IMG/VR virus record: IMGVR_UViG_3300029305_003192
Reading direction: 5' to 3' (one strand)
Length of the DNA: 64,000 nucleotides
Source of the DNA: a virus
Lineage: Duplodnaviria > Caudoviricetes
The translations under genes were made by a program, and so were the position numbers. This document shows, piece by piece, positions 7,214 through 63,054 of this stretch; position 1 is the first letter of the stretch, and the number at the start of each line of letters is the position of its first letter. The notes under the pieces were generated by a model. That model did no database searches, had not been told where the DNA came from, and saw only the letters and a list, made by a program, of their open reading frames with translations.

Positions 7214-7223
7214 ATGATATATA
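7214..7223 (-). promoter_or_regulatory. putative early promoter TATATATCAT
   Basis: One of 7 exact intergenic copies, each oriented toward a downstream gene. Confidence 0.7.
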
Positions 7224-9454: not shown

Positions 9455-9464
9455 ATGATATATA
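9455..9464 (-). promoter_or_regulatory. putative early promoter TATATATCAT (ligase)
   Basis: Exact motif ~45 nt upstream of the ligase start. Confidence 0.7.
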
Positions 9465-10819: not shown

Positions 10820-10829
10820 ATGATATATA
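10820..10829 (-). promoter_or_regulatory. putative early promoter TATATATCAT
   Basis: Exact motif upstream of the 10736 gene. Confidence 0.68.
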
Positions 10830-12225: not shown

Positions 12226-12235
12226 ATGATATATA
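12226..12235 (-). promoter_or_regulatory. putative early promoter TATATATCAT
   Basis: Exact motif upstream of the sigma4-like gene. Confidence 0.7.
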
Positions 12236-17279: not shown

Positions 17280-17819
17280 TTATAAACGAGTTTCTATCAT
17301 AAGCTGTATGCTATATGTACTATTACCAGGATGAACCAGTATGTCAACTGGACGATGGTCTGGGTCGGCTTCTTTACCTTTATACAGATTAGCATTTATG
17401 ATAAGGAGTCTTTCGAACTTACTCAGATCAACTCTAGTATCATTCTTCATACGGTTGACGTACTCAATGACCGCTCTCGAGCCGAAATGTAGAACCGTAT
17501 CAACATATGCGTCTCTACCATCACGGTAATCATCATAATCAATTTCTCGACCAGAAGCTTTAGCTTTGCTATCAACCCTGCGATTATGATCGATGATTGC
17601 AGTCAGATGATGTAGTAAATATACGAGCACTGCATGTGAGTTGATATTTTCAGGATTACCTATAAATTCTGGAAGACAAATGTCCGTACCTTCGGATATA
17701 TCTGAGCTATTAACGAAGAAGTCGGAATAGCTATAGATATCTTTCGTGATGATTCTATGCTTAATAGCATCATCATTATCAGTATCTGATGAAATAGTAA
17801 ATCTTATATCGTCTGTCAT
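17280..17819 (-). CDS. hypothetical protein (179 aa)
   Basis: Start overlaps the stop of the RNAP beta-C gene (translational coupling). Confidence 0.7.
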   Translation of the reverse strand: MTDDIRFTISSDTDNDDAIKHRIITKDIYSYSDFFVNSSDISEGTDICLPEFIGNPENINSHAVLVYLLHHLTAIIDHNRRVDSKAKASGREIDYDDYRDGRDAYVDTVLHFGSRAVIEYVNRMKNDTRVDLSKFERLLIINANLYKGKEADPDHRPVDILVHPGNSTYSIQLMIETRL

Positions 17820-20227
17820 TACTTCTTATCCTCCTTCTCCGACACTGTAATCATATCCTGATACTGTCCATAGATAGCATCGCGAACACAGCGTACGATG
17901 TATGATGGAATCTCAAGGAACTTGAAATCTTCAGAGTTCTTGATATCCTTAAAGATAGCTGGGTCACCTGGTGTTGCACCGTCTCTGAGAGCACGGGTGT
18001 ATCTGTCAACCAGGAATACATAGTATTTACGGTTAATCGGCGTATCGATAAAGGTATAGCCATACACCTTTATGAACTGACGGATATTCGCAATTTCATC
18101 TTCTCTTAATGAAAGATTGGTCACGAATTTATATCCGATACCCATAACCTTAAGACGAGCCTTGAGTGCAAGTACGTTATCGTTAACGTAGTTACTCTTA
18201 ATCTTAAATGAACCAATATTCATTGGGTCACCTGTAGCACTGATAATCTTACCAAGTGCCTTACGTCCAAGTACAGATGTACGTGTCCATACATTATGCT
18301 CTGCGAGTACTACTGGAGCAATCTGTGTCTGAAGGTCAGCGATTTCTGAAATACATACAGGTGTATTACTATTACATATACGATTCTCCTTCTTATCAGA
18401 TGACTTAGTAGGTAAACCCGCCTTAGATGTAGTACCAGTTGAACGTGCAGAGAAGTTCTTGTTGGATGTCTGCTTGAGCAGGAACATGTACTTGTATCCG
18501 ACAACCATCTTCTTCATGAGAGGTTTCTTCATTCCGAAGATGTTTACATAGAGCTGGTATGGCTCTACAATATCGGCATAGATCTTATAGAGTTTCTGGA
18601 ACGCGTCGAATCTGAGCTGAGCTGCAGGAGACTTAATGAAATAGTATCCATCTCTCTCAACGGATTCGACAATCTTACGCTTGATTTCCTTATCTTCAAC
18701 GTATGTGTCACCATCAACTCTTACCCTGAACTGGTGTAAGAATACCTTACACTGTTCGGCGTTGATATAGCCAATGAATCTGAGAATTTCGTCCATCTTA
18801 GTGTCAACATTATCAAGTGTAGTAATCCACTTACGGTGACATTCGGCAAGGAAGTTGAGGTCAACTTCATACAACTGGTCGGTATTCTCACGACGGAACG
18901 CACCTGTAGCATTGAGCACAATATCAAGTGGTGTACCGTCTTCCATGTAGTACATACTTTCATCATCAACGATGTCAATATGTGTGTTATTGAGATTGCT
19001 TACATCGATACCGAGGGACTCGACCAGAAGACTTGTGAATGTATCGAATTCTTCCTTGTCGATTTCCTCGTTAGGACCTCCATCACCGATAACCTTGGAA
19101 ACTACACCTTTATCACCATAACGTCCTACGAACTTACAACCTTCCTTAGGGAAGCAGGTTGTTTTTGTCTTGAAGACCAATACGATGTTAGAGAAGGGCT
19201 TGTCTCTCATTTTCCATTTCTTCGTTGGGTCATTATATCTATCGAAACGCTTACGCTGGAATGTGACATTATCTGTGTAGCGAGAACCACTCTGCTTAAT
19301 CTTAGTAGCAGCTTCGAACACCCTATCAGCGTATGTGCAGCAATATTCATAGTATTTAATGAGCTGTGCGTTATAAATTGTGTCTGGGATGGGTTCATCC
19401 CCATTATAGTACACATCGATGTCATATACTACTGTGCCGAGCTTGGTACAGTATTTATTGTCAGTATTGCAGATATCATGAACGTTCTTCTCACGGAAGT
19501 CATATGTTGCATACATGGAGTTATATCTTCTGGTAGCACAAAGAATCTCAACGTCATTGATTACTTCACCTACGTCAGGGAAGGATTTATCTCCATGAAT
19601 AAAGAGGAGAATATCGTTGTCGTTGATAGATACTGTAGTCTGTCCTACTTCAACATATCCAAAGTCCTTAAGATATCCGCGACGGATTTTGATACCGTCT
19701 TCATATGTCGCTACGTCGTTACTGTATGCGACTAAAGCATTCTTACCAAGACGATAGTTCATATGTTCATCATATGATGTAGACTTGAAGAGAATTGGGT
19801 CGGTTGTCTTATCGCCAACATTGAGGCTATCCATGCCTTCAGTATTATACTGATAGCCAAAGCTCTCTGCAATGTATCTAGCCTGCTGCTTCTCAATCAT
19901 ATCATATGTATCAGTCTCAGCGTTGTAGAGAATGAGCATATATACATTATCGTCTCCGAATTTTTGAATTTTGTCAACTACTTCCCATTCGCCTTTGAGT
20001 TCTTTATAGGCGTGAGAGTATTTACCAAATGCACGTTCATGTCCTGTCTGAACACGTGCGATGTCTGGATTAAGAAGTGTCACGTACTGCTTCTGGTTCT
20101 GAGTAGCCATGAAGAGACGTGAGCCGTTGGAGCCACCTGGGTACAAGATAGAACTTGGACCATAGCAATGCTCCATATTACTTATGCGGTGATTAACTTC
20201 CTCGTATACGCTTTTATCATATCCCAT
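17819..20227 (-). CDS. phage RNA polymerase beta subunit, C-terminal part (probably non-virion RNAP)
   Basis: SRLFMATQNQKQ, YEDGI, GCKFVGRYGDKGVVS (cf. GDKMAGRHGNKGV), DGTPLDIVLNATGAFRREN, GYKYMFLLKQTSNKNFSARSTG. Confidence 0.92.
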   Translation of the reverse strand: MGYDKSVYEEVNHRISNMEHCYGPSSILYPGGSNGSRLFMATQNQKQYVTLLNPDIARVQTGHERAFGKYSHAYKELKGEWEVVDKIQKFGDDNVYMLILYNAETDTYDMIEKQQARYIAESFGYQYNTEGMDSLNVGDKTTDPILFKSTSYDEHMNYRLGKNALVAYSNDVATYEDGIKIRRGYLKDFGYVEVGQTTVSINDNDILLFIHGDKSFPDVGEVINDVEILCATRRYNSMYATYDFREKNVHDICNTDNKYCTKLGTVVYDIDVYYNGDEPIPDTIYNAQLIKYYEYCCTYADRVFEAATKIKQSGSRYTDNVTFQRKRFDRYNDPTKKWKMRDKPFSNIVLVFKTKTTCFPKEGCKFVGRYGDKGVVSKVIGDGGPNEEIDKEEFDTFTSLLVESLGIDVSNLNNTHIDIVDDESMYYMEDGTPLDIVLNATGAFRRENTDQLYEVDLNFLAECHRKWITTLDNVDTKMDEILRFIGYINAEQCKVFLHQFRVRVDGDTYVEDKEIKRKIVESVERDGYYFIKSPAAQLRFDAFQKLYKIYADIVEPYQLYVNIFGMKKPLMKKMVVGYKYMFLLKQTSNKNFSARSTGTTSKAGLPTKSSDKKENRICNSNTPVCISEIADLQTQIAPVVLAEHNVWTRTSVLGRKALGKIISATGDPMNIGSFKIKSNYVNDNVLALKARLKVMGIGYKFVTNLSLREDEIANIRQFIKVYGYTFIDTPINRKYYVFLVDRYTRALRDGATPGDPAIFKDIKNSEDFKFLEIPSYIVRCVRDAIYGQYQDMITVSEKEDKK

Positions 20228-30289: not shown

Positions 30290-30299
30290 ATGATATATA
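30290..30299 (-). promoter_or_regulatory. putative early promoter TATATATCAT (tubulin operon)
   Basis: Exact motif just after a terminator hairpin. Confidence 0.7.
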
Positions 30300-39384: not shown

Positions 39385-39394
39385 ATGATATATA
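39385..39394 (-). promoter_or_regulatory. putative early promoter TATATATCAT
   Basis: Exact motif just after the endolysin terminator. Confidence 0.7.
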
Positions 39395-41625: not shown

Positions 41626-41635
41626 TATATATCAT
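41626..41635 (+). promoter_or_regulatory. putative early promoter TATATATCAT
   Basis: Exact motif on the plus strand, upstream of the plus-strand 41670 gene. Confidence 0.72.
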
Positions 41636-61223: not shown

Positions 61224-61931
61224 ATGTATCTTATCTACGATATCGTATGTGGTGATTGTTTGAATATCTACGATGGCGATATTCGAACGTTCGATAAGTC
61301 GTTTAAAACGGGTACTGCTTACTATAATTCGGAATCGTTCGGATATATCGAGGTTCCAGAAGACTGTGTTGAGAATATAAATACAAACGGACTCGATAAT
61401 TACAAGGTTATCGATGGTGAAGTAGTATATGAAAAGCCCGCGGCAGAAATTATTCCCGATCCAGAGGAACCACCTACTGAGGAGGATAATGTAGTAGTTG
61501 GTGAATCTGCTCTCGAATATATGATTACTATGAAATGTGAAGAGATTAATAATACATGCCATGCTGCCATCATTGCAGGTATAGACGTGGAAACATCTTA
61601 TGGTCTCGAGCATTTCAGCCTCACTAAAGATGATCAGTCTAATATTCAGCAGTGGTATGCAATTGCTAAGACAACTGATGTCAATCTTCCATATCATGCA
61701 GATGATGGTGATTGTAAGCCCTATACAAATACCGACATCATTAAGATTGGTAGTATGGCCACAGCTCATATTACACATCATACAACTTACTGTAACCAGT
61801 TAAAGAAGTATGTAAAGTCACTTACATCTGTAAAGGATGTATTCGATGTCGAATACGGAGTTACTCAGTTAACGGGCGAGTTCCTCGAGAAGTACGAAAC
61901 TTGTATGGGACTCCTTGCGGTGCTTAATTAA
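61224..61931 (+). CDS. tail fibre assembly/chaperone-like protein (DUF4376-like)
   Basis: C.AAI.AGIDV..HFSLT.DDQ.N..PYHAD..C..Y..HTTYCNQLK.Y..V.YG. Confidence 0.68.
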   Translation: MYLIYDIVCGDCLNIYDGDIRTFDKSFKTGTAYYNSESFGYIEVPEDCVENINTNGLDNYKVIDGEVVYEKPAAEIIPDPEEPPTEEDNVVVGESALEYMITMKCEEINNTCHAAIIAGIDVETSYGLEHFSLTKDDQSNIQQWYAIAKTTDVNLPYHADDGDCKPYTNTDIIKIGSMATAHITHHTTYCNQLKKYVKSLTSVKDVFDVEYGVTQLTGEFLEKYETCMGLLAVLN

Positions 61932-61942
61932 CAAAAAAAAAT

Positions 61943-61975
61943 GAATCGAGTAGGCTAATGAAACCTACTCGATTC
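61943..61975 (-). terminator. intrinsic terminator with a U-tract on the minus strand
   Basis: GAATCGAGTAGG/CCTACTCGATTC stem; the A9 run on its left reads as a T9 tract after the hairpin on the minus strand. Confidence 0.75.
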
Positions 61976-62395
61976 TTACCCTATATTCCACTCAAAGTGT
62001 GCTGGGTTAATAGCCACCAGTGACGAGTATCGGATAGTCCCATAGTCTTTATCACTATGGGAGTCCGTACCATTTGTCACCGGCGTTTGACGCTTTGAGC
62101 TTCCTACCGGGTGTGATGAATAACAACCTAATGTGTGGTACGTACCACCCTTTCGGCCAGGTCGTACCAATCAGAGGTAAGTGCCTTCATTGCTGAAGGT
62201 TGAACCCTCTGATATGAGGTAGGTTGTTTTCAAGACCGTACCAGTATCTCACGACACAAATACGGTCAAGCAAGCATATCCTATTACTGAGATATACTTT
62301 GCGTTCACCCTAGTAGGCGTAGCTTTATATATAAACAGTGCAATTCAATGCACAGGTATTATAGTAGTTTCATCACGATACTATCTATAACGCAC
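61976..62395 (-). ncRNA. candidate large structured non-coding RNA (~420-450 nt)
   Basis: No credible ORF; many nested helices, GCAA and GAAA tetraloops on the minus strand, a possible pseudoknot; promoter-like TATATATGAT upstream and a terminator downstream. Confidence 0.6.
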
Positions 62396-62459
62396 TAATA
62401 TCATATATATTTGAACCCTCTGACAATTTTAATAATTATTAAAAAGGAGGAATCTTATT

Positions 62460-62834
62460 ATGACACCAGCTCAGAAAATCGCCGCAAATTATAAGGCAAA
62501 AAATATGCAGGAACCTGACCCTAACGCGGTTCCAGAGAACAAAACTACATTACCGGTTGAGGAGGAAACACCAATGGCAGAAGTAAATACAGCCCCAGTA
62601 CAGGAAACTGCTCCAGGATCTGCTCAGGAACAGGTAGTGGTGATTCCAGTAACAGGAATCTCCGCACTTATCAACGCACTCAATGACACTCAGAAGAACC
62701 TTATGGAATTTAAGTTCCATGATGTAACTGCAGGAGAGCTTACCGATTATCTTGCAAATATTACAAATATTCAGCAGTGCGTACAGTATCTCGGTGAAGT
62801 TGTTAAGGCAAACTACGAGAATCTTCATAAGTAA
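62460..62834 (+). CDS. hypothetical protein (124 aa)
   Basis: AAGGAGG RBS. Confidence 0.75.
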   Translation: MTPAQKIAANYKAKNMQEPDPNAVPENKTTLPVEEETPMAEVNTAPVQETAPGSAQEQVVVIPVTGISALINALNDTQKNLMEFKFHDVTAGELTDYLANITNIQQCVQYLGEVVKANYENLHK

Positions 62835-63012: not shown

Positions 63013-63054
63013 AAGAGTAAATAGAGGAAAGCGAATCATCGCTTTCCTCTATTT

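Follow-up and report, generated by a model that had tools for sequence, protein, structure and literature searches.

A putative early structured RNA gene, with an AR9-like promoter, in a jumbo phage of the ruminant gut

Results

Genomic context

The stretch of DNA analysed here (64,000 nt, hereafter the window) belongs to a 141-kb IMG/VR virus record that derives from ruminant gut metagenomes and has a completeness estimate of 59%, so the full phage genome is probably about 240 kb. By a topoisomerase II subunit, the nearest isolates are the AR9/PBS1-like jumbo phages of Bacillus, Staphylococcus and Listeria, at ~26% identity. Two ORFs of the record resemble RNA polymerase beta subunits (PF00562), one at 17819-20227 on the minus strand (802 aa) and the other at G000:C1:22259-22786 (an open frame of ~1474 aa), in agreement with the pair of multisubunit polymerases that phiKZ/AR9-like jumbo phages have.

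As a preliminary description of this DNA had stated, the largest coding gap of the window lies near its end: between ORFs of 100 aa or more there is none larger, and it spans 528 nt (61932-62459). Both flanking genes are on the plus strand. Upstream is a tail-fibre-type gene with a DUF4376 domain (61224-61931), which ends in its own stop codon at 61931; downstream is a 124-aa ORF (62460-62834), with its own ribosome-binding site and an ATG at 62460. The 124-aa gene is divergent from the minus-strand RNA described below and accompanies it in all three lineages in which the RNA was found. No family match was found for the 124-aa protein, and its structure model is of low confidence (pLDDT 59.8), consisting of a helical hairpin and a disordered acidic linker; as modelled, with that linker, the protein does not look like an RNA binder. 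Together with a small excisionase-family DNA-binding gene that is present in some copies, the RNA and the 124-aa gene make up a small island flanked by two structural operons that converge, and the RNA strand is antisense to both. A 16-bp hairpin with T runs on both strands (63019-63054), likely a bidirectional terminator, separates the small genes of the plus strand from the Laminin_G_3 gene that converges on them.

Homologues and distribution

Eight close relatives of the 124-aa protein (66-93% identity) were identified, and one distant relative (32% identity) came in addition from a profile search among 1.8 billion cluster representatives. All homologues come from ENA or Logan gut-metagenome assemblies. 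Because every copy of the RNA was reached via these proteins (P0001-P0009), the linkage between the RNA and the 124-aa gene is partly built in. In every contig that reaches far enough, a gap of ~520 nt adjoins the 124-aa gene, giving 12 distinct gap copies in three lineages, all from ruminant gut samples. The copies of the window's own group (lineage 1) are 79-98% identical to one another; the gap of lineage L102 is ~61% and that of lineage L104 ~48% identical to the window's.

Other searches returned no further copies. BLASTN, which had been suggested as the route to homologues, gave no match for the region among 50,697 phage genomes, and no relatives were found in IMG/VR by single-protein searches with both flanking proteins or by a profile search with the small protein. 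Exact-pattern scans for the conserved hairpin gave no match in IMG/VR or GTDB genomes, in either its strict or its L104-fitting form, and the strict form gave none in JGI metagenomes. A joint pattern of invariant motifs 1 and 2 (described below) gave nine hits in high-GC DNA, which we regard as chance, the other motifs being absent from all of them; a scan for a repeated 7-nt word at the RNA's spacing returned 83 stretches, taken for chance or repeats. R1, a covariance model of the RNA's second domain, gave no hit in AR9, Staphylococcus phage SA1 or Listeria phage LPJP1, nor in three more distant relatives obtained via a conserved neighbour of 590-750 aa. At the syntenic place these distant relatives have neither the gap nor a domain II match, and L121, where this was compared, also has no homologue of the small protein. 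In relatives (L121:2635-4182, L122:1-4604 and L123:3170-4708), the conserved tail-region gene of 590-750 aa is closely preceded by a radical SAM enzyme gene beside genes for Cys-repeat proteins. No second copy of the RNA region was found in the 141-kb record.

The region is conserved without a conserved reading frame. Short ORFs of 28-85 aa occur on both strands, and they vary in frame, start and length among the homologues. A 199-aa ORF beyond the terminator, considered as a downstream antisense gene, is not conserved. In five of seven comparisons the RNA was more identical than both flanking genes: 88% against 70% and 75% in L091, 94% against 75% and 76% in L097, and 94% against 49% and 82% in L090. 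In the last of these, an unrelated 262-aa gene (L090:351-1139) replaces the upstream gene (49% nucleotide identity to window 61224-61931), which puts a mosaic boundary at the terminator shared by the two. A search for trans targets by complementarity found matches of at most 14 nt to the rest of the genome, which is the chance level.

Promoter and terminator

Within the gap we place a minus-strand RNA gene of ~459 nt, running from a predicted start at 62393 to about 61935. Early promoters of phage AR9, which serve the injected virion polymerase, follow the consensus AAATATATATTAT-(6N)-G+1 (PMC5312081). On the minus strand, the sequence at 62412-62393 agrees with this consensus at 12 of the 13 positions of an AT-rich element (62400-62412), which is followed by a 6-nt spacer (62399-62394) and by a G at 62393. 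It is by the AR9 rule that this G is the predicted transcription start, 2 nt before the first helix, P1, and with consensus, spacer and G at +1 the element has the makings of an AR9-type early promoter. Its 10-nt core (62409-62400), already noticed as a promoter-like motif, is kept in 12 of 12 homologues apart from a single base, which is G, C or A. Since the promoter matches the AR9 early consensus with its spacer and G+1, the RNA is probably an immediate-early transcript of ~459 nt.

There are 19 copies of the promoter motif in the 141-kb record; the base 7 nt downstream is a G in 12 and an A in 5 of them (a purine in 17 of 19), and one copy is upstream of an NAD-dependent DNA ligase gene. 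Copies in the window lie on the minus strand at 7214-7223, 9455-9464, 10820-10829, 12226-12235, 30290-30299 and 39385-39394, and on the plus strand at 41626-41635. This recurring 10-nt AT-rich motif, often followed by a 6-nt spacer and a purine and placed after terminators, looks like the phage's own version of the AR9 early promoter.

Two other candidates were rejected. A sigma-70 promoter at 62387-62358 falls inside helix P1. A 13-nt exact direct repeat (62200-62212/62411-62423), considered as a pairing of the RNA with the leader, is present in only the window's closest relatives and is not conserved; one copy is in the P6a arm and the other in the spacer that precedes the RNA promoter, and the repeat is probably due to chance.

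At its 3' end the gene is closed, as had been claimed, by a hairpin and a T9 tract. The intrinsic terminator (61933-61975, minus strand) comprises a stem of 12-14 bp (61975-61943) and a U tract (61941-61933), and a terminator scan placed a 14-bp hairpin with a T9 run behind it at 61975-61933 on this strand. It is present in all homologues, and five pairs of its stem have changed on both sides while 100% of cells remain paired. The terminator abuts the upstream gene's stop codon and is bidirectional in some relatives.

Predicted secondary structure

RNAalifold on ten copies, followed by curation, gave a fold of 17 nested helices and one pseudoknot, arranged in two domains. The full predicted transcript (62393-61935, minus strand) has a folding energy of -186.5 kcal/mol as compared with -118 +/- 6 for dinucleotide shuffles (z -10.9), a comparison that had been put forward as a check. 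For the core (61975-62330) set against dinucleotide shuffles, z was -8.27 on the minus and -5.72 on the plus strand. All features below are on the minus strand.

The 5' hairpin P1 (62358-62391) pairs 62391-62380 with 62368-62358; 94.5% of its cells are paired in the MAFFT alignment, and equivalent hairpins of other sequence are found in L102 and L104. Part of its loop enters the pseudoknot, whose 5' arm (62369-62376) pairs with a 3' arm (62113-62120, read as 62120-62113) in the linker between P6 and P7, that is, between the two domains. Its eight pairs are standard in 98.8% of cells, with one change on both sides, and the helix is also predicted by RNAalifold. It measures 8 bp in the window's group, 7 bp in L102 and 5 bp in L104, where the outer pairs are kept and two pairs have been exchanged for others through changes of both partners. 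We estimate the chance of a 5-bp match in L104 alone at roughly 1 in 20, and because that match could be accidental, the pseudoknot is well supported by the sequence comparison but not proven.

P2 (62338-62353) shows a change from A-U to G-C, and a G-U that is compatible with the minus strand only; at its place, L104 has an unrelated 7-bp hairpin. The first of three invariant motifs (17 nt, 62305-62321) can be drawn as a small hairpin, P3, by pairing 62319-62315 with 62310-62306. In all homologues, including L104, whose adjacent protein is just 32% identical, 15 of the 17 positions are the same, the two variable ones being in the loop. Since the paired positions of P3 never vary, its pairing is beyond the reach of covariation; a flanking helix extends it in L102 and L104. 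P4 (62270-62302) has twelve pairs, two of them changed on both sides (97.5% paired), and P5 (62234-62267) has fourteen, five of them changed on both sides (99.3% paired), with a GUGA loop in the window copy.

A three-way junction domain follows (62122-62228), composed of P6 (62228-62220 with 62130-62122, three pairs changed on both sides), P6a, P6a' and P6b. The P6a/P6a' arm (62170-62213) carries invariant motif 2, a conserved internal loop of 5+5 nt (62205-62201/62182-62178) and a GNRA tetraloop (62193-62190). The stems of this arm covary, the fourth pair of P6a appearing as four pair types, and the loop letters are identical in all lineages; the P6a' tetraloop is GCAA, and GCGA in L102. This tetraloop and a GAAA loop at about 62154-62151 are the two minus-strand GNRA loops that had been pointed out, and both are present. 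P6b (62136-62169) is longer in L102 and absent from L104, and is therefore a variable peripheral element. A 10-nt perfect palindrome (62147-62138) lies inside the P6b stem, and a 6-nt word containing GUAC was seen four to five times in the RNA.

Domain II (61978-62112) stacks P7, P8, P9, P9a and P9b and has a side hairpin, P10. Invariant motif 3 (62026-62071) is its P9a/P9b hairpin, which has a 7-nt loop (62053-62047) and conserved bulges; within it, a stretch of 39 nt (62028-62066) is identical bar one position in the ten aligned homologues, L102 included. In L104 the loop and outer stem are kept and four stem positions differ. When the whole fold was mapped onto L104 by coordinates, 116 of 116 pairs were standard.

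Six of the seven helices listed in the preliminary description are recovered here with support from covariation, namely 61991-62000/62090-62099 (P8), 62038-62046/62054-62062 (P9b), 62122-62130/62220-62228 (P6), 62170-62177/62206-62213 (P6a), 62184-62189/62194-62199 (P6a') and 62234-62240/62261-62267 (P5). The seventh, a long-range pairing of 62103-62107 with 62313-62317, had no two-sided change, and its variable pairs break in variant homologues. A pseudoknot proposed between 62245-62251 and 62288-62294 fared no better, with one two-sided change, many broken cells and no support from covariation. The bases of these two pairings are used instead by P3, P7, P4 and P5.

Covariation and strand

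Pair counts were made on a plain MAFFT alignment of the ten copies that was not fitted to the structure. Standard pairs occupied 96.9% of 1473 cells, as compared with 35-46% when the 3' partners were slid by 1-3 columns. Changes on both sides were seen in 38 of 149 pairs, against 12.8 +/- 2.5 in shuffled alignments and 2-8 in the slid controls, and for four of five measures, the number of two-sided changes among them, none of 500 shuffles reached the observed value. The covariation among homologues that had been called for is thus present, and two-sided changes occur in P1, the pseudoknot, P2, P4, P5, P6, P6a, P6b, P7, P8, P9, P9a, P10 and the terminator. The covariance model R1 of domain II was built from nine copies, leaving out L104; it finds L104 across all 137 positions (40.9 bits, E ~6e-10), exactly where that copy had been placed by eye. 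In the R1-guided alignment of domain II that includes L104, pairing holds in 94.2% of cells, and 18 of the 47 pairs have changed on both sides.

Four observations bear on the strand. Paired columns contain 153 G-U cells as compared with 8 A-C cells. The minus strand is more stable by 12-37 kcal/mol in nine of nine homologues tested, and it is also more stable in L104. The R1 score is 158 bits for the minus strand, as against 15 bits for the plus strand. In every case a long U tract follows the terminator on the minus strand. On these grounds the RNA is assigned to the minus strand, which settles the doubt about strand that had been voiced earlier.

The tolerance of G-U but not A-C speaks to whether the gap holds an RNA-level feature at all. 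Its many inverted repeats, and the short ORFs of 28-85 aa on both strands, could be those of a palindromic DNA element (an origin, packaging site or protein-binding site) or of a decayed or small coding region. However, duplex DNA would not favour G-U over A-C, a preference that indicates selection on one RNA strand; moreover, two-sided changes keep the pairing, the ORFs are inconsistent among homologues, and promoter and terminator are both conserved. We regard this explanation as scarcely credible. The locus has the features of structured ncRNA genes in general, with compensatory pairs, strand-specific G-U, a promoter and terminator, and no conserved ORF, and the earlier claim of a structured ncRNA gene of ~450 nt is upheld at ~459 nt with a fold supported by covariation.

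The same strand data weigh on a role in cis. The gap is directly upstream of the 124-aa gene and its plus strand also beats shuffles (z -5.7), as would suit a 5' leader of that gene, and the terminator that abuts the upstream stop codon, bidirectional in some relatives, would suit an antisense or convergent regulator of the tail-fibre operon. Against both, the G-U to A-C ratio and the folding energies favour the minus strand everywhere, and the transcript stops short of the upstream gene, so that it runs into no coding sequence. The RNA of L090 is still 94% identical with another gene (49%) in the upstream position, and neither the 13-nt repeat, a possible RNA/leader pairing, nor the downstream antisense ORF is conserved. 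Beyond the terminator the minus strand has no conserved ORF, which is not what is expected of a riboswitch or other cis-acting leader. A cis element is accordingly very unlikely in our judgement, and we proceed with an RNA gene of its own on the minus strand.

Searches against known RNA families

Across the whole window there was no Rfam match at gathering thresholds, and with E-values up to 10 and lax filters there was none in the region or in its counterparts in L091, L102 and L104, nor did any weak hit recur between lineages. ARAGORN reported no tRNA or tmRNA. RNase P RNA, tmRNA, SRP RNA and 6S RNA were without an Rfam match, and ROOL, GOLLD, OLE, raiA and HEARO were not among the Rfam matches up to E 10 in these four sequences. 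Nor was there a match to a group I or group II intron core; no host gene is interrupted, and the RNA is on the strand opposite to the flanking ORFs. The statement that hallmarks of tRNA, tmRNA, RNase P and group I/II introns are missing thus holds for the window copy, and the lack of any known family extends to the three other homologues. As for guide or template RNAs (omega RNA, retron, DGR), no RVT_1 or TnpB-type match exists in the 141-kb record (59% complete), and no gene for a reverse transcriptase, TROVE protein, TnpB-like protein or sigma-70 was found there.

The RNA might nonetheless be a very divergent member of a known family, such as group I introns, RNase P RNA, tmRNA, ROOL, GOLLD or omega/guide RNAs. 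Some short words in it resemble what we take to be T-loop-like sequences, and several group I introns occur in AR9-like phages (PMC5312081). This must be set against the empty Rfam (to E 10, lax filters) and ARAGORN searches and against the flanking ORFs, which are both complete, one having a stop codon and the other a ribosome-binding site of its own. In addition, the 141 kb encode no reverse transcriptase, no TROVE protein and no TnpB-like protein. We allow divergence from a known family a slight chance, smaller than that of a cis element.

Discussion

We consider it very probable that the gap encodes a real and new structured early ncRNA gene. The complex, tertiary-type fold, the invariant and partly unpaired motifs, the RNA's own early-type promoter and terminator, the lack of above-chance complementarity to targets and the independence from the upstream gene point to a folded RNA that acts in trans. 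We propose that the RNA would be transcribed from G62393 directly after infection, by the injected virion RNA polymerase, and that its transcription would be antisense to, and independent of, the adjacent late tail-fibre operon. The RNA would then act in trans through its tertiary structure, the invariant motifs most likely being binding surfaces for a host or phage protein, and might serve as a scaffold or decoy in host take-over or counter-defence. A partnership with the divergently transcribed 124-aa gene is conceivable. The scaffold or decoy mechanism taken by itself is tentative, and we would sooner doubt it than assert it; the explanation as a whole, in which the gene claim and the mechanism are blended, we judge somewhat probable.

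The invariance of the three motifs would also suit a catalytic core or contacts between molecules, and the RNA may work alone, as a large ribozyme or as a self-assembling RNA-only particle of the kind formed by ROOL and GOLLD, two large RNAs that are associated with phages and assemble into homo-oligomers (PMC12286853). In keeping with this, the fold is complex, with junctions of several helices, a pseudoknot, GNRA loops and internal loops that do not vary. However, no conserved self-complementary loop was seen through which the RNA could oligomerise, the 10-nt palindrome of P6b being within a stem and missing in L104; there is no sign of a substrate, a cleavage site or an interrupted gene; and 459 nt is less than the size of ROOL or GOLLD. 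An RNA that works alone is in our view unlikely, and a scaffold or decoy is preferred over RNA-only assembly or a ribozyme.

It is doubtful, but would be of consequence, that this is the first large tertiary-structured RNA made by a jumbo phage virion polymerase in the first minutes of infection, and hence a new functional class. If that were true, the RNA could be an RNA-only machine (a ribozyme or self-assembling particle) or a decoy that disarms a host defence or a take-over target. From the position of the RNA behind a promoter class that the virion polymerase transcribes in AR9 comes the idea that Firmicutes jumbo phages may use folded RNA, besides proteins, as an immediate-early effector. 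Few large structured RNAs without an assigned function have been described in bacteria and phages, and such classes have repeatedly yielded new biology. For a metagenomic find the candidate is unusually well defined, with boundaries, strand, fold, pseudoknot and motifs backed by the comparison of homologues, and its size of ~459 nt and clear domains suit chemical probing and cryo-EM. Its immediate impact is limited by a narrow distribution (three lineages, ruminant gut) and by the lack of a cultured host.

The packaging RNA (pRNA) of phi29 (RF00044) is a folded RNA of ~170 nt that works in a protein complex, has its own early promoter and is confined to small phi29-like phages. The window RNA is likewise a structured, phage-encoded RNA behind its own early-type promoter, in this case a predicted one; it differs in having no Rfam match, and nothing ties it to packaging.

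With the early promoters of AR9/phiKZ-related phages, the promoter of the RNA shares the extended AT-rich element (12 of 13 positions), the 6-nt spacer and the G start, and it also recurs before DNA-metabolism genes. We infer that the virion polymerase would recognise it, although the common core here ends in CAT and not in TAT as in AR9, whose proteins are only ~26% identical. Small RNAs of phiKZ-like jumbo phages, such as sRNA005 of 201phi2-1, are also non-coding transcripts, one of them conserved near tail genes (PMC11512511). The mapped jumbo phage sRNAs were filtered to <250 nt, and 8 of 11, including sRNA005, come from the 5' UTR of a gene on the same strand (PMC11512511). In contrast, the window RNA has 459 nt, is a stand-alone gene on the opposite strand and has a multi-domain fold.

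ROOL (RF03087) and GOLLD (RF01998) are large, ORF-free RNAs that are encoded as separate genes in Firmicutes phages and prophages, and ROOL was first sighted in rumen metagenomes (PMC12286853). Like them, the window RNA is large, intricately folded and without an ORF, and it is a separate gene rather than a leader. Unlike them, it is shorter (~459 nt), has another architecture with no match to theirs in sequence or structure, has no adjacent tRNA genes, and stands behind an early promoter of the virion-polymerase type in a lytic-type jumbo phage. We rate it as a new family of large phage RNAs, in the same general class as ROOL and GOLLD but belonging to neither of those families.
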